Of a stretch of 64,000 bases of DNA, positions 36,101 through 41,809 are shown piece after piece. The stretch comes from an uncultured Clostridia bacterium (GTDB lineage: Bacteria > Bacillota > Clostridia > Christensenellales > UBA1242), in the NCBI GenBank assembly GCA_944381175.1, contig CALWKD010000004.1:76939-140938 (forward strand). Direction: 5' to 3'. Numbering within the stretch: the stretch's first letter is position 1; every line of letters starts with the position of its first letter. The notes beneath the pieces were generated by a model. That model was not told the origin of the DNA, ran no database searches, and saw only the letters and a list, made by a program, of their open reading frames with translations. A program made the translations under genes and the position numbers.

Positions 36101-36883
36101 ATGAAACTAGACGGAAAAGTTGCGGTCATATCTGGCGGTGCAAGCGGAATTGGATTTGCAATTGCAAAGAGACTGAAAAGCGAGGGAGTAAGAATTTACG
36201 ACATCTCAAAAACTACTTCTAAATCTGAAATTTTTGAAAAATCTTTTCAGTGTGACATCTCAGATGACGAAAAGGTTTCGGTTGTGGTCGAAGAAATTTT
36301 GAAAAAAGAAAAGAACATTGATTTGCTTTTTTGCAATGCTGGATTCGGAATTGGTGGGCTTTTGGAAAATGCAAAAATTTCAAGCATTGCCAACATTATG
36401 AATGTAAATCTCATCGCTCATATGAAAATGACAAAACTTTTTCTTAAAAACATAAACGAGAATGGGCGTATCGTTTACACGGGCTCACTGGCTTCAATTA
36501 TTCCTCTTCCATATCAGGCTTGTTACAGTGCAAGTAAGGCGGGAATTGAAAATTTCGCAAGAGCGATTGCCACGGAAGTTAAACAAAAGAAAATCAAAGT
36601 TTTGACCTTTATGCCAGGAGACATAAACACAGGTTTCACCGATGCGAGAATCAAGGAGACTGGAAACAGCGAGGGTGAGCGCCAAGGAATTGCAAAAATG
36701 GAGAAGTCGGAAAGAAAGGGAAAAACGCCAGACTTTGTCGCAAAGCGAGTTTTGAGGGTGATTAAAAGGAGAAATCCACCACTTCGAGTTTCCATTGGTG
36801 GAACAAGCAAACTTATCTCTGCGCTTGTGAAAATTTTGCCTGTGAAAATGCTGAACTTTCTTGTGGAGAAAATTTATATTTAA
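36101..36883 (+). CDS. SDR family oxidoreductase
   Basis: VISGGASGIGFAIA (TGxxxGxG). NAG. YSASK catalytic motif. Confidence 0.85.
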   Translation: MKLDGKVAVISGGASGIGFAIAKRLKSEGVRIYDISKTTSKSEIFEKSFQCDISDDEKVSVVVEEILKKEKNIDLLFCNAGFGIGGLLENAKISSIANIMNVNLIAHMKMTKLFLKNINENGRIVYTGSLASIIPLPYQACYSASKAGIENFARAIATEVKQKKIKVLTFMPGDINTGFTDARIKETGNSEGERQGIAKMEKSERKGKTPDFVAKRVLRVIKRRNPPLRVSIGGTSKLISALVKILPVKMLNFLVEKIYI

Positions 36884-37035
36884 AATTTCAAAAGCATTTT
36901 TTTGGTTTTTGTTGATGTCATATTCAACATTTCAAATTTGGAGTATATTTTTTAATCTGGGAACTTGTCTCAGATTTTTCTTTTTTGGCAAAATTTGACA
37001 TTTTTCAACATATATTTTCCCATAGGAGTTTTCTT

Positions 37036-37761
37036 ATGGTTTTTGAAAGTTTTGCTTATTTTTTCAGTAGAATTTGTCTGTTTACAAATTATGTCAACAC
37101 CACTCAGGGTTTCCCAAAACCGCTGGAAGCAAAAGAAGAAAAAGAACTGTTTGAAAAGATGAAAAATGGAGACAAAAAAGCGAGAGAAAAACTTATAAGT
37201 CACAACCTAAGGCTTGTGGCTCACATTGTCAAAAGATACACAAATTCGCTTGAGGCAGATGACCTTTTGTCCGTGGGAACAATTGGGCTTGTCAAGGCGA
37301 TTGACAGTTTTGATTACGACAAAAAGGTCCAACTTTCCACTTACGCTGCAAGGTGTATAAACAACGAAATTTTGATGCTTATCCGCTCAAACAAAAAGCA
37401 CAAAAATGTGGTTTCCTTAAACAGTCTCACCACAAGTGGTGACGACGACAAGGAACTCGAACTTCAAGATGTTTTATCTTCCGATGATGAGGAGATTTTT
37501 TCGCAGGTGGAGACAAGTCTCACGGTTCAGAAGATAAAGAAAATCATTGAAAACAAGTTGGACGAGAGGGAAAAAATTGTCATCAAACTTCGATATGGAA
37601 TTGATTGCGAAAGGGCGTTTACTCAAAAAGAAATTGCTGACAAATTGGGAATTTCTCGCTCCTATATTTCTCGAATTGAAAACAAATCAATCAAAGTTAT
37701 TCGAGATGAGTTTGAAAAAGAGGGAGAAAATGCTGTCTCGGGGATTATTCCCAAAGAATAA
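37036..37761 (+). CDS. sigK: Sporulation sigma factor, pro-sigma-K type, uninterrupted
   Basis: Hydrophobic pro-sequence MVFESFAYFFSRICLFTNYV, then FPKPL..., HNLRLVAHIVKRY, STYAARCINNEILMLIR, region 4 QKEIADKLGISRSYISRIE. RBS AGGAG. A mother-cell-type CATATATT -10-like element lies at 37009-37016. Confidence 0.8.
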   Translation: MVFESFAYFFSRICLFTNYVNTTQGFPKPLEAKEEKELFEKMKNGDKKAREKLISHNLRLVAHIVKRYTNSLEADDLLSVGTIGLVKAIDSFDYDKKVQLSTYAARCINNEILMLIRSNKKHKNVVSLNSLTTSGDDDKELELQDVLSSDDEEIFSQVETSLTVQKIKKIIENKLDEREKIVIKLRYGIDCERAFTQKEIADKLGISRSYISRIENKSIKVIRDEFEKEGENAVSGIIPKE

Positions 37762-37988
37762 TTGCAAAAATTTTACAAATTTTGCTTGACAGTTTGCTTT
37801 CAAAAAAATTATTATAAAAATAAGTGAAAATATTTGTTTTTTATCTGAATTAAAACATTTTTTTGAGCAATTTTTGGTTTTAAGTTTATTGTTTCAAAAG
37901 TCGCCGATTTTGAAATAATTAAAAAAACACTAAAATCAACCAAATTTGCTCTTTTTGCAAAAATTTAGTTTTCCGAGGGGGTGGCAGA

Positions 37989-39350
37989 ATGGACAAGTTG
38001 GAGTTTTATGATATCGTTGGAAAACTTATTGTGCCACTTTTTACTGGTTCTTATTTGGCGGGCGAAATGGAGTCCTCACCAAGAGATTTGGAGGTTGCAC
38101 TTGGGAAAGGAAATTCCGTTCTTCTGAAGCCAACAAAACTTGATGACTACAGAATTGTTCTCAAGCGTGGGCAAGCGTTTAAATCTTTTGAGGTCAACAT
38201 TATTCGCTCAATTATCAAAGTTTTGAATGACATATCCGAGCTTGGCATAACGGACAAAATGTATTTGTCAAAGTTGCAAAGTATTGCCATCGAAAGAGCA
38301 CTTATTGAAAGTCTTACCGACGCGGGAAGTGAGACGATTTTGGGGATTATTGGAGAACTTGAAAAGTGGTCCACAAGGACATATGAGGGGCAGAGTGTCT
38401 CGCTTGGAATTTTGGTGAATTTGGCAAGTGTTGCAGACCAGCACAATCCTGTTTATTATCACAATGTTTTGGATAGTGACTTTTTTGCTCTCTTCACTGA
38501 TGCAGTCAATTCCTTTGTGGAATTTGATAAAGACGGAAAGATGATGGGATATGTTTCGCTTAAAAATCCCAAAAAGGTGGCAACGGTTTCGCCTTATATT
38601 TACGAAAAAGTTGCCAGAATTTGCAACGACAAAAGAATTGGAATTTGCTTGACAAAAAATGAAGATATATTGATTTTCTATTCAAGGCAACTCGTCTTTG
38701 CAAAAAGAAATGGGAGTTGGTGTGTTTATTGCCACGATGAGATCATCAGGCTTTTGCAAAACAATGTCTCCTCGGCGGCAAAACAAATCAGGCGTGCGAT
38801 TTACAACACCGCTCTCGATTGTTCTTTCTCATACAAAGGGGCTTGCATCGCTTACATCGACAAAGACAAGACGCTTGAGGCACTTTCGCACATTGATGTG
38901 GCGGACATAATTTCAGAAGAGTATTTCAACAAGAAAAAAGAACTCGAACTGGAGGAGGCTGGAAAACTTTACAATCTCGGAAATGCGAAGTTTATTATTG
39001 ACAAGTTCAGTTTGAGTTATGAAGAATTTTTGGATAAATACAAGTATGCAAAAACTATGGCTATCAGACGCATTGTCGCAGGGAAAAAACTCTTTGAACT
39101 TGACCGAAAACTTGTCGAGGAAATGACTGCTATTGACGGAGCGACAATCGTTGATTATGAGGGAACAATCATCGCGGTGGGTGCGATTATCAAGATTGAG
39201 GCAGGAAGTGACGGCGGTGGGCGTCTCGCTGCAGCAAAGACAATGGCAAAATACGGTGTTGCAATCAAAGTGTCGCAAGACGGAATTATGCAAGGCTTCA
39301 CATTCGACAAAAAGACAAACACGGTGAAACAGATTTTTTATGTAGGGTAG
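37989..39350 (+). CDS. Divergent DisA_N/DAC-fold domain protein with large uncharacterised N-terminal region (453 aa)
   Basis: C-terminal AIDGATIVDYEGTIIAVGAIIKIE....GGGRLAAAKTMAKYGVAIKVSQDGIMQGF aligns by eye to the diadenylate cyclase core (HDGAVII...GTRHRAA...VVSEETG). DGA is kept and RHR is lost. TTGACA-18-TATTAT promoter at 37787-37816 gives a leader of about 170 nt. Confidence 0.55.
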   Translation: MDKLEFYDIVGKLIVPLFTGSYLAGEMESSPRDLEVALGKGNSVLLKPTKLDDYRIVLKRGQAFKSFEVNIIRSIIKVLNDISELGITDKMYLSKLQSIAIERALIESLTDAGSETILGIIGELEKWSTRTYEGQSVSLGILVNLASVADQHNPVYYHNVLDSDFFALFTDAVNSFVEFDKDGKMMGYVSLKNPKKVATVSPYIYEKVARICNDKRIGICLTKNEDILIFYSRQLVFAKRNGSWCVYCHDEIIRLLQNNVSSAAKQIRRAIYNTALDCSFSYKGACIAYIDKDKTLEALSHIDVADIISEEYFNKKKELELEEAGKLYNLGNAKFIIDKFSLSYEEFLDKYKYAKTMAIRRIVAGKKLFELDRKLVEEMTAIDGATIVDYEGTIIAVGAIIKIEAGSDGGGRLAAAKTMAKYGVAIKVSQDGIMQGFTFDKKTNTVKQIFYVG

Positions 39351-39402
39351 GCGAAAAAACGGCACTTTAGCGAAAAAACGGCGCTAAAACTCGGCTTGCT
39401 GT

Positions 39403-39573
39403 TCGCAAGCGCTCGGGAGACGCTTGTTTTTTCGCTACTTCGCACCAAACGAAAATTGCACAATTTGTGCAATTTTGTGCGAACTTTCTTTGGTTTTTAT
39501 TTATAAAGACGCATGGCGTCCGACCAAGCGAAAATCTCGCTCGCTTTGCTTCACTGCGATTTTGTCGTGACTT
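39403..39573. repeat. Modular intergenic repeats (module 1 at 39403-39430; bulged-hairpin module 2 at 39441-39486 and 39520-39573), related to 18726-18807
   Basis: tcgcaagcgctcggg.ag.cg.ttgttt is shared with 18726-18752. The motif CGAC-CAAGCG-AAAATC...GATTTT-GTCG-TGACTT is shared with 18762-18807. The variant CGCAC-CAAACG-AAAATTGCACA-ATT-TGTGCAATTTT-GTGCG keeps the architecture with different stem sequence. Confidence 0.8.
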
Positions 39574-39753
39574 AAAGTGGAGACATCGAAATGGTGCTGA
39601 GCAGATGCAAAAAAAATAAATGTAGTTAGGCGAAAATTTGTATGTTTAAAATAGAAAATGAAAAAATGGCGCTTTTGGCTTGGTTTTATATTCTCATATA
39701 TTTAGGAATTTGGAAAATAAAAGGGCACGCGGTGGCATTGTGGGGTTGGAGCG

Positions 39754-39782
39754 GTTGACAAATTTAGTGTTTTGTGATATAC
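39754..39782 (+). promoter_or_regulatory. Sigma-A type promoter of rnpB
   Basis: TTGACA (39754-39759), 17 nt, TATACT (39777-39782). The P1 helix starts about 7 nt downstream. Confidence 0.7.
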
Positions 39783-39787
39783 TGACA

Positions 39788-40200
39788 AAGTCAGACAGCC
39801 AGATGGTCGCTGTGCAGTTGTGATGACTGCAGAGAGGAAAGTCCGAGCATCTAAAGAACAAGGTGCCAGTTAACGGCTGGTGAAGGCGACTTCAAGGATA
39901 GTGCAACAGAAATAGACTGCCCTAATTGGGGAGAGTCAATGAAGTGGCGGTTAGGCTTTGCCTTGTCCGCGTTAAACGGAATTGGTGCTTCCCCAGGGCG
40001 ATGGTGGAAAGGTAGGGTAAGAGCCTACCGAGGCGGTGGCAACATCGCTTGCTCTGTAAACCCCACCTGATGCAAGATTAAGTTTGAGCATATGTGTGTT
40101 CTTTCACGCTCAACAAAAGTATCGCTTGAACTTGTTGGCGACAACAAGTCTGGATAGATGACCATCAAATACAGAACTCGGCTTACAGACTGTCTGACAA
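39788..40200 (+). ncRNA. rnpB: RNase P RNA, bacterial type A, with an enlarged P12 arm
   Basis: P1 GTCAGACAG...CTGTCTGAC. P4 strands GAGGAAAGTCCGAGC and ACAGAACTCGGCTTACAG. GTGCAACAGAAA. P13/14-type GGTAGGGTAAGAGCCTACC. Confidence 0.9.
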
Positions 40201-40226
40201 ACCACTTTATGTGGTTTTTTTATTGC
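40201..40226 (+). terminator. rnpB terminator; first copy of a 26-nt perfect direct repeat
   Basis: ACCAC-TTTAT-GTGGT + T7. The identical 26-mer accactttatgtggtttttttattgc recurs at 40502-40527. Confidence 0.8.
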
Positions 40227-40295: not shown

Positions 40296-40502
40296 ATGAA
40301 AAGAAAATTTGCAGAGAGGTTGAGAGAGTTGAGACAGGAGAAAAAGTTGTCGTATAAGCAACTAGGAAATCTTGTCGGCTTGAGTTCTTCGGCACTTTGC
40401 AATTGGGAAAATGGTCTGATGGATATCACAAGTGACAACTTACAAATTTTGGCGGATTTCTTTAAGGTGAGCACTGATTACCTTTTGGGAAGAGAAGATT
40501 GA
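40296..40502 (+). CDS. XRE-family helix-turn-helix protein (68 aa), probably leaderless
   Basis: FAERLRELRQEKKLSYKQLGNLVGLSSSALCNWENG...LADFFKVSTDYLLG. Extended -10 TGATATAAT ends 7 nt before the ATG, and there is no RBS. Confidence 0.85.
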   Translation: MKRKFAERLRELRQEKKLSYKQLGNLVGLSSSALCNWENGLMDITSDNLQILADFFKVSTDYLLGRED

Positions 40503-40527: not shown

Positions 40528-40579
40528 AAAAATTTGAGTGCTAAGTCTAAAAAATTTCTCCTTTGGAAACAATTGCTTT

Positions 40580-41809
40580 ATGACGAAAAAAGAGTATATT
40601 CAAAGGGCAAAGAATTTGATTTTGAACAGGGTGAGATTTCACGCACCGATTTTGTTTGACGACGAGATTGATGAAAGGGTTTTGGAAAATGGCGGGATAG
40701 ACAAAAATTTGCCAATTTTCAAGTTTGAGAAAGTCCTTGACAAAAAACTTATCAAGGCGTTTGCACTTGCAAAGAAAGAGGAAAAATTCAATCTTGTGGT
40801 GGCGTCTGAGGTGGAGGGGAAGAAGTGTAAGGTGCTTCAAAATCTTCCAAACACGGTTCTTTTGGGAAGATATTCTTCCAAAAGGCTCTTGGAAATGATC
40901 AACAAGTTGAACATAAATTATTCCTCCTCAACCAATTTCAATTTGGAGTTTAAAGACAAGTTTTTTTGTGTTAATGGCGTGAGATTCAATCCGTCTTTTC
41001 AAGATTTTCTGCTTGTGCAAGAGGCTGTTTTTGAGGATGTTTTTGTCAAATACAACGAATTTGTTTTGAATGGCGAAAACATCTTCGTCAAGTTTTTAAA
41101 CAAGGTGAGTGAAGAAAAAAAGTTGACCATCGAACTGAACATTCCACTCAAAAAGGGTTACTATTATTTCAAAAAAATGGACAAGGCATATTTGATTGAA
41201 AATTTGGTGACGAAAGAAAAACTCTTTTTCAATTTCCTATGCAGTGGGGCAAAGTTTTCCTTTTCAAATGTTGACGGACTTGAAAACTCGGTGTTTTGTT
41301 GTGTCAACTTGAAACTCAACATCACGCTTAAGCCAAAGCAGATGAAATTTGTCTTTTTCAATTTTGGCTCGTCGAAATTCTCAATTAAAACCCTTTCGGA
41401 AGCCGAAAAATTTGTCAAACTTTCGCAGAAGAAAACGAGAGAAGTTTTTGATGTGCAGGTTAAGACCAAAAATCCAAAATTTGATTTCTTTTTCAATCGT
41501 ACTCTTCCGCAAAAAATTTGGGTGAACTGGCTCAACGGCACATTTGACAGAGGTTTGGAAGAGAAATATTTGACTTACCGCAGACTTTTTGTGCGAGGGA
41601 AAGAAAAAATATCATTTGTCAAATTTTCAGAAATCGGAGTGAGAGAAATTGGGGTCTTTAATGGAGAATATTACAAAAAAATCATTTTTGTGCAAGGAGA
41701 CGAGAAGTTTCTTAAAGTGGGCAAGACTTATTTTTACAACATCAACGACATCACGAGTCGAACTCTCTCAAGCAAAGAGCCTGTGCTTTTGAGTTTTGGA
41801 GAGGAGTGA
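40580..41809 (+). CDS. Hypothetical protein (409 aa), Phe/Lys/Asn-rich, likely beta-rich
   Basis: Long ORF with codon usage like its neighbours. I recognise no motif. Start ATG 40580 is tentative. Confidence 0.5.
   Translation: MTKKEYIQRAKNLILNRVRFHAPILFDDEIDERVLENGGIDKNLPIFKFEKVLDKKLIKAFALAKKEEKFNLVVASEVEGKKCKVLQNLPNTVLLGRYSSKRLLEMINKLNINYSSSTNFNLEFKDKFFCVNGVRFNPSFQDFLLVQEAVFEDVFVKYNEFVLNGENIFVKFLNKVSEEKKLTIELNIPLKKGYYYFKKMDKAYLIENLVTKEKLFFNFLCSGAKFSFSNVDGLENSVFCCVNLKLNITLKPKQMKFVFFNFGSSKFSIKTLSEAEKFVKLSQKKTREVFDVQVKTKNPKFDFFFNRTLPQKIWVNWLNGTFDRGLEEKYLTYRRLFVRGKEKISFVKFSEIGVREIGVFNGEYYKKIIFVQGDEKFLKVGKTYFYNINDITSRTLSSKEPVLLSFGEE

Follow-up and report, generated by a model that had tools for sequence, protein, structure and literature searches.

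The gene described here occupies positions 37989 to 39350 (+ strand) of a 64,000-nucleotide stretch of DNA from an uncultured Clostridia bacterium (contig CALWKD010000004.1 of assembly GCA_944381175.1; the whole stretch is hereafter called the window), and encodes a 453-residue protein of three domains, the C-terminal ~190 residues of which are a genuine diadenylate cyclase (DAC)-fold domain. Its family is large and unannotated, and the sequence and model data suggest that its members probably make up a new class of synthases of nucleotide signals and are no dead relics. For the window protein, the reading that we favour, with moderate confidence, is that of a soluble three-domain protein, in which a divergent and probably catalytically competent DAC domain would serve physiological nucleotide signalling in the window lineage. 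The case for an active, non-canonical cyclase is built on the DAC fold, on a tetrad of residues that is invariant in the family and universal among DACs, and on the precedent of PanS, a small DAC of anti-phage systems.

The C-terminal DAC-fold domain and its probable active site

The relationship to DAC domains, which the initial annotation had proposed from the letters alone, is borne out by fold comparison, by relatives of the protein and by calibrated profile-profile scores. An AlphaFold2 model built from a deep alignment (predicted local distance difference test, pLDDT, 95.0; predicted template modelling score, pTM, 0.91) consists of three packed domains, the last of which spans residues 259-453 (38763..39347, + strand). 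The structure search that had been suggested as a check was carried out with this model in Foldseek, and catalytic domains of CdaA or DisA account for all of the top 50 PDB matches at a probability of 1.00, with target-normalised template modelling (TM) scores of 0.5-0.63 and E values down to 7e-4; the best match is CdaA. An earlier model from a shallower alignment (pLDDT 70.7) had DisA as its 14 best Foldseek matches. The BFVD viral structures contained no match to the model.

The same domain is recognized in the sequences of the relatives. Among 108 diverse family members, 31 match Pfam DAC (PF02457) at E<=1, with a best E of 4.8e-7, which makes DAC by far the commonest Pfam match in this set; two members that were checked singly reached 22.6 and 24.4 bits, under the gathering score of 27, and precomputed PF02457 annotation is present on some family members. 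When a profile of the 108 sequences was compared by hhalign with six DAC domains, whose sequences were checked against PDB 6hvl, 6huw, 8ofo, 3c1y, 9y4s and 7y0d, 113 columns aligned collinearly with P = 0.0012, and the score of 30.0 was reached by none of 100 column-shuffled DAC profiles (13.7±2.6). The window protein alone has no match among Pfam, PADLOC or PDB sequences, and its sole library signal is a local match of residues 370-407, the DGA region, to the NCBIfam model DS2_3_antiphage (NF053872; E = 4.4e-4), which at 18.7 bits lies far below the family cutoff of 630. Because DS2_3 carries the DAC of the CBASS-DAC system Liu-DS2/DS-2C, this match is itself a DAC-domain signal.

A chance resemblance, with a C-terminal region unrelated to DAC domains, would be compatible with the failure of the single window protein to match Pfam DAC and with the profile-versus-sequence searches of PDB, in which neither the 22-sequence nor the 108-sequence profile found a DAC. 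The DAC link was reached by profile-profile and fold comparison, since only these are sensitive enough, and here the Foldseek search, the 31 Pfam-matching members, the shuffle-calibrated hhalign score and the local DS2_3 match all concur. A chance origin is thus effectively refuted, and we give it next to no weight.

The catalytic motifs are partly kept and partly replaced. In the 108-sequence family alignment, the mean column identity is only 23%, and the invariant columns of the C-terminal domain include D383, G384, G398, G410, R412, S429 and D431; a single member from beyond this alignment has Glu at the D431 position. The motif D383-G384-A385 (39135..39143, + strand) aligns to the DGA of CdaA and DisA, so that the retention of DGA claimed at the outset holds, with the first two residues invariant and A385 at least 90% conserved. 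Downstream, GGGRL (residues 409-413; 39213..39227, + strand) is aligned to (L)GTRH(R), and SQDG (residues 429-432; 39273..39284, + strand) to the SEETG of CdaA, and the family tallies of these motifs read xDGAT, GG(G/A)RxAAA and (I/V)K(I/V)SxDG. In the profile-profile register, LDxSFxxxGxCI (residues 276-287) lies opposite the GALI β1 strand, IDGAT opposite HDGAV, GGGRLAA opposite GTRHRAA, and VSQDG opposite VSEETG. The initial annotation had set GRL against RHR, and this register has to be corrected, as it is GGGRL that pairs with GTRHR: R412 is the first arginine of RHR, L413 and A414 take the places of the histidine and of the second arginine, and the threonine of GTR has become glycine. 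The full RHR motif is therefore absent, as had been stated, but to call it lost is an overstatement, because its first arginine is kept as the invariant R412. Similarly, SQD does stand where CdaA has SEE, but SEE is specific to CdaA and no general DAC signature; DisA has SRRR or SHSM at this place, and only the serine is common to the verified DACs, which the family retains as the invariant S429.

Among ~1,200 curated DACs, the only fully conserved positions are the equivalents of D68, G69, G103 and R105 of EcPanS (10.64898/2026.08.10.743972). By this published criterion, the universal tetrad is complete in the family as D383, G384, G410 and R412, all of them invariant in the 108 sequences, and the scoring of catalytic residues against known DACs, another check proposed earlier, comes out as four universal positions kept, with the histidine and second arginine replaced. 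Moreover, PanS, a DAC of ~150 residues with DGF and GGR motifs, synthesises 3'3'-cUA or c-di-AMP, its activity is lost upon mutation of the motifs, and its residues D71 and R108 contact the phosphodiester (10.64898/2026.08.10.743927, 10.64898/2026.08.10.743972). Since the universal arginine is invariant and the GGR-type PanS is active, the loss of the full RHR motif is no argument for lost catalysis, and the pattern of sequence conservation fits a maintained active site.

If the domain is active, it would be expected to bind a nucleoside triphosphate with a divalent metal, like other DACs. Two DAC domains would then meet head-to-head, each nucleotide using its 3'-OH to attack the α-phosphate of its counterpart, and the result would be a cyclic dinucleotide, which might be c-di-AMP or a mixed product such as cUA, as in PanS. 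The N-terminal domain and the middle domain, the latter possibly derived from a DAC, could have sensory or regulatory functions, or pair with the catalytic domain as a pseudo-partner.

Several observations weigh against an active cyclase. The window protein does not match Pfam DAC even at E<=10, and thus stays under the gathering score of 27 bits; the canonical RHR motif of CdaA, DisA and CdaS is reduced to R412, the histidine and second arginine of RHR and the threonine of GTR being absent; no linked, conserved effector or receptor gene was found, and the 64-kb window holds neither a c-di-AMP riboswitch nor another c-di-AMP gene. In addition, the invariance of the pocket residues is also compatible with a dedicated nucleotide-binding receptor. 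The main rival explanation is indeed that the protein is a DAC-derived pseudoenzyme, which would bind a nucleotide, be it ATP, c-di-AMP or another, but catalyse nothing, and serve as a receptor or sensor; the replaced residues of GTRHR, the scores of the window protein below every DAC threshold and the want of a linked effector gene all speak for it, as does DACNH, a non-catalytic DAC-derived domain reported in CdaG proteins (10.64898/2026.08.10.743972). However, the invariant residues that were retained coincide exactly with the four universal positions, which are catalytic or contact the phosphate, the catalytic aspartate usually drifts in pseudoenzymes, and GGR-type DACs are active, as PanS demonstrates. 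We consider a pure receptor possible but rather unlikely. The initial annotation had left the choice between a non-canonical nucleotide cyclase and a DAC-derived sensor, and it is the cyclase that the invariant tetrad and PanS favour, with the sensor as its main competitor.

An extended form of the cyclase reading would see in the family an uncatalogued class of DAC-fold cyclases, in which a degenerate DAC-like domain and a catalytic GGR-type one share a single chain and pair with each other as a pseudo-dimer, in the manner of the C1/C2 halves of class III adenylyl cyclases. Such an enzyme would make a signal other than c-di-AMP, and in the Caccovivens-like gut Clostridia a mobile ancestor with ties to defence would have become a core housekeeping signalling enzyme, which possibly replaced CdaA. 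Taken as a whole, this proposal appears unlikely.

Additional domains and the extent of the family

The N-terminal domain (residues 1-128; 37989..38372, + strand) is modelled as a helix, a four-stranded sheet and three long helices. The initial annotation had recognised nothing in the first ~120 residues, and the searches agree, as residues 1-128 have no match in Pfam, NCBIfam or PDB sequences; hhalign comparisons of this domain with the DAC and middle domains, which served as a control, gave P = 0.23-0.52.

The middle domain (residues 129-258; 38373..38762, + strand) is possibly a degenerate DAC-like duplicate. Its family-invariant residues are Y132-E133-G134, P202 and W244, and its β-α-α-β-β-α-β-β-β order in the model mirrors that of the C-terminal domain. 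When the two domains were aligned by hhalign, they paired in register with P = 0.011 and a score of 19.1, compared with 11.9±2.4 for shuffled profiles, of which 2 of 100 reached it; in this pairing SNGxDT lies with IDGAT, APxRF with GGGRxAA, and NGEILIF with SxDGxI. The peptides quoted in the initial annotation are all present in the 453-residue open reading frame (ORF), namely MTAIDGAT...IMQGF at residues 379-437, EGQSVSLGILVNL at 133-145 and FVEFDKDGKMMGYVSL at 176-191. That the middle segment is a second, degenerate copy of the DAC-like fold, as had been suggested there, is plausible and weakly supported by the alignment score and the order of elements, but it is not established.

A helical insertion at about residues 305-352 (38901..39044, + strand), identified from the alignment and the model, separates the β1 and DGA strands and is specific to the Clostridia clade. 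The segment aligned to residues 291-375 is 80-91 residues long in this clade, as against 41-50 in 74 of the 108 members, and the extra ~40 residues are modelled as three helices (310-326, 330-339 and 344-351). Tetratricopeptide repeat-like matches at residues 310-351 (E = 0.02-0.16) were dismissed, being non-significant and falling within the clade-specific insert.

The family comprises 740 homologs at E<=1e-3, and when clustered at 50% identity, the results of an exhaustive HMMER search amount to at least 1,215 clusters, of which 384 have E<=1e-30. A relative is encoded in 202 species-level genomes, and the members belong at least to Bacillota and Verrucomicrobiota. Pfam-A (2025), NCBIfam 20 and PADLOC 2.0 contain no model of the family, and none of the Pfam models of DAC-associated N-terminal domains is matched by the 108 members. 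By their respective membership criteria, the family belongs to none of CdaA, DisA, CdaS, CdaG and PanS. It would thus appear to be a new DAC-domain architecture with a GGR-type active site, Galperin's 22 DAC architectures lying outside this comparison.

Genomic context and probable physiological role

The distribution and neighbourhood of the gene, the survey of which had also been proposed, differ between the window lineage and more distant relatives. Synteny was counted in the best 80 loci of the 202 species-level genomes, which come from uncultured gut Clostridia (Ca. Caccovivens, plus metagenome-assembled genomes labelled Christensenella, Catabacter and others) and carry orthologs of 51-81% identity. 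In these 80 loci the gene sits in the conserved block smc-ftsY-(SDR)-sigK-gene-rnpB-hyp423-mgsA, where SDR denotes a short-chain dehydrogenase gene and hyp423 a 423-residue ORF; sigK is upstream and co-oriented in 69 loci and rnpB downstream in 70, and a 45%-identical ortholog keeps an identical gene order. The gene is a vertically inherited, single, monocistronic core gene of the window lineage. No canonical DAC was found within the 64-kb window.

Outside this clade the contexts are variable. In two loci, L085 and L088, the family gene lies inside type I restriction-modification (R-M) operons, together with a conserved Pfam-less protein of ~310 residues. This protein (L085 7066-7998, L088 5042-5980) is 72% identical between the two loci and adjoins the DAC-like gene despite a rearranged gene order, which makes it a candidate partner or effector in the R-M-embedded clade; hyp423 was considered as its counterpart in the window lineage and rejected (hhalign P = 0.38). 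Other members adjoin DUF3800, or SLATT and HNH genes, or a serine recombinase and ParE/RelB, and a Prosthecobacter member lies in a region with IS110, a SUKH protein and an AAA_15/21 ATPase. Some members are fused to AbiD/Abi_2 or Schlafen-AlbA_2, while some distant ones are found in housekeeping settings. On an IMG/VR viral contig (L182 81-1604), a divergent 507-residue member (KTYEC ... IDGAT ... GAR ... VSEDG) adjoins a tyrosine integrase; viral contigs as a whole contain hardly any family members. In 80 further metagenomic loci, neither gerE nor R-M genes were neighbours of the family gene and no partner recurred, and in unbiased neighbour clustering the largest neighbour family covers 6 of these 80 loci. 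The gene is a self-contained unit, and its association with defence is clade-specific.

These contexts bear on two further explanations of the window copy. According to one of them, it would be a single-gene anti-phage or abortive-infection protein, whose DAC-like domain makes or consumes a nucleotide upon infection, as might be expected from the distant members in R-M operons, from those beside DUF3800, SLATT with HNH, or the serine recombinase with ParE/RelB, from the viral contig with its integrase, from the fusions to AbiD/Abi_2 or Schlafen-AlbA_2, and from the DACs of defence islands, which the literature has by now established. Against this, orthologs down to ~45% identity share with the window copy a position within a stable block of housekeeping genes (69-70 of 80 loci), the GC content of the gene is native (40.8%, as against 39.5% for the window), no PADLOC model is matched, R-M neighbours are absent from the 80 further loci, and viral contigs are almost free of family members; a defence function of the window copy is hence improbable in our judgement. 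The other explanation, which goes back to the initial annotation, is a sporulation-linked function, in which the protein would have a late mother cell role with σK (and GerE), analogous to CdaS. In 69 of 80 loci the gene follows sigK immediately and in the same orientation, which would agree with it, and so would the lack of a clear terminator after sigK, which makes read-through possible, and a 29%-identical paralogous clade that lies directly downstream of a gerE ortholog. On the other hand, the conserved promoter of the gene itself is σA-type, gerE adjacency recurs in none of the 80 further loci, sigK is a neighbour only where the entire syntenic block is present, and the family is also present in Verrucomicrobiota, which do not sporulate. 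The σK -10 consensus is CATA---TA, and the spacer ahead of the gene is devoid of such an element. The adjacency to sigK is lineage synteny and no evidence of function, so that the suggested link to sporulation finds no support beyond synteny, and we regard it as very improbable. A physiological nucleotide-signalling role, and not phage defence, is most likely in the window lineage, because the copy is a core gene with its own conserved σA-type promoter.

The gerE ortholog mentioned above (L094 7620-7896) encodes 68 residues, with 1fse as best PDB match (E = 8.7e-18), has a σK-type promoter-like sequence, AC-N17-CATACAATA, and lies directly upstream of a 472-residue family member, which has a TTGATT-N17-TATAAT promoter of its own. 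A general tie of the family to sporulation regulators, prompted by this distant clade, was rejected, as it was not reproduced in the 80 further loci.

The coding sequence of the window gene, taken from the ORF list, begins with ATG and is preceded by a σA-type promoter (37786..37815, + strand), which a consensus scan identified as TTGACA (37786-37791) and TATTAT (37810-37815) with an 18-nt spacing, matching 11 of 12 consensus positions and confirming the earlier assignment. A TTGACA(G)-N16-19-TAnnnT element is present in the sigK-gene spacer of nearly all of the loci L001-L051. The AT-rich 5' leader (37816..37988, + strand) extends over ~167 nt from the presumed transcription start at ~37822 to the ATG, and contains a hairpin (37887-37899 / 37908-37919; arms TTTCAAAA at 37892-37899 and TTTTGAAA at 37908-37915), which is present in the minimum free energy (MFE) fold, and the ribosome-binding site GAGGGGG at 37975-37981. 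The ~170-nt leader and its hairpin thus exist as described, but nothing supports them as a regulatory feature: the fold (MFE -30.3 kcal/mol) has z = -0.77, with 42 of 200 shuffles folding equally well, an Rfam search of the leader returned no significant riboswitch or structured RNA, and neither its length nor its hairpin is conserved across 69 related loci, where the gap ahead of the gene has a median of 131 nt, compared with 227 nt in the window. A riboswitch or structured regulatory element was rejected on these grounds. Just past the stop codon, a long hairpin with 12-nt, 100% complementary arms (39368-39379 / 39426-39437) ends in a T-run (39368..39437, + strand); by its sequence it is a probable transcription terminator, and a simple terminator scan did not call it.

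The neighbours named in the initial annotation, sigK upstream and a repeat-rich region ahead of rnpB downstream, are both in place. At 269.5 bits, the upstream gene lies above the cutoff of the NCBIfam SigK subfamily (252 bits), and it carries an N-terminal extension; it is intact (36985-37761), free of an intervening element, and the hydrophobic extension that precedes FPKPL fits a pro-sequence. Its listed TTG start is probably too far upstream, as the alignment to the SigK model begins at residue 18. A weak Rfam match to the small RNA pntA at 37736-37793 (27.9 bits vs a gathering score of 54, E = 0.28) shares positions with both the -35 element and the 3' end of sigK, and is most likely due to chance. 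Downstream, rnpB, a class A RNase P RNA (39791-40201; 261 bits), is separated from the gene by a 440-nt spacer (39351-39790) with direct and inverted repeats. These include three copies of GCGAAAAAACGGC(A/G)CT (39351, 39370 and 39658), a perfect 12-nt palindrome, AAAATTGCACAA-T-TTGTGCAATTTT, at 39452-39476, which is operator-like in appearance, and several other inverted repeats, and a TTGACA-17-TATACT promoter (39755-39783) stands immediately ahead of rnpB.

Further members of the block differ in their conservation. The short-chain dehydrogenase gene between ftsY and sigK (36101-36883) occurs in only 20 of the 80 syntenic loci and is thus a variable member, while a small XRE-family helix-turn-helix gene between rnpB and hyp423 (40296-40502) occurs in 1 of 80 related loci and is probably a recent insertion. 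hyp423 itself (40538-41809) has no Pfam or NCBIfam match and is syntenic, after rnpB and before mgsA, in 51 of 80 related genomes; on sequence comparison, it qualifies as a lineage-specific conserved protein without a recognised family.

Relation to known DAC systems

For a long time c-di-AMP was regarded as the sole product of DACs, and these enzymes were assigned to a few classes, until defence-island DACs with a GGR motif were shown in 2026 to make cUA. If the favoured reading is right, a further large family with the minimal catalytic tetrad widens the range of nucleotide-signal synthases, one that is invisible to Pfam, NCBIfam and PADLOC and carries two unrecognised domains as regulatory candidates. 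A single enzyme family would then serve both mobile defence contexts and a core role in abundant uncultured gut Clostridia, and gut microbial c-di-AMP output is relevant to host STING signalling.

The closest parallel in the active site is PanS (mDAC) of the Panoptoo/PanDA anti-phage systems, which shares the DAC fold and the D-G-x ... G-G-R pattern, as opposed to DGA ... (T)RHR. The GGR motif of PanS is present in the window protein as G410-G411-R412, a comparison made through published motifs. Otherwise the two differ considerably: PanS has ~150 residues, consists of the DAC domain only and has DGF, whereas the window protein has 453 residues, DGA, two extra N-terminal domains and the insert of ~40 residues; and PanS is encoded in a two-gene operon with a 2TM-β-barrel effector, while no such effector adjoins the window gene.

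CdaG (DS-2C) of the CBASS-DAC system Liu-DS2 is likewise a multi-domain, soluble protein with a C-terminal DAC. Its DACNH domain is reported to be a very distant, non-catalytic DAC relative (10.64898/2026.08.10.743972), so the DACNH-DAC arrangement parallels the possible pseudo-DAC middle domain of the window protein, although Pfam DACNG and DACNH are matched by neither the window protein nor any of the 108 members at E<=1. CdaG is moreover larger (~550-575 residues), has a C-terminal helical bundle and belongs to a CBASS operon with a CD-NTase and an effector, in contrast to the sigK and rnpB neighbours in the window.

Among the canonical enzymes, CdaA (DacA) is a housekeeping, membrane-anchored c-di-AMP synthase with three N-terminal transmembrane helices, encoded in the cdaA-cdaR-glmM operon. 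It provides the best structural matches (target TM up to 0.63), is likewise a chromosomal core gene, and shares with the window protein the DGA, the glycine and arginine of G-x-R and the serine of the VS strand; its transmembrane helices, the full GTRHR and SEE, and the cdaA-cdaR-glmM operon have no counterpart in the window protein or locus. DisA, whose DAC domain is also among the top structural matches, resembles the window protein in being without the acidic SEE pair, but it has the canonical RHR, forms octamers and carries a helical linker and a helix-hairpin-helix DNA-binding domain at its C-terminus, whereas the extra domains of the window protein are N-terminal. CdaS of Bacillus, which is represented by 2fb5 among the canonical DAC hits, is a soluble, sporulation-specific DAC and the analogy behind the sporulation idea; it differs from the window protein in its ~200 residues, its two-helix N-terminal autoinhibitory domain and its canonical motifs.

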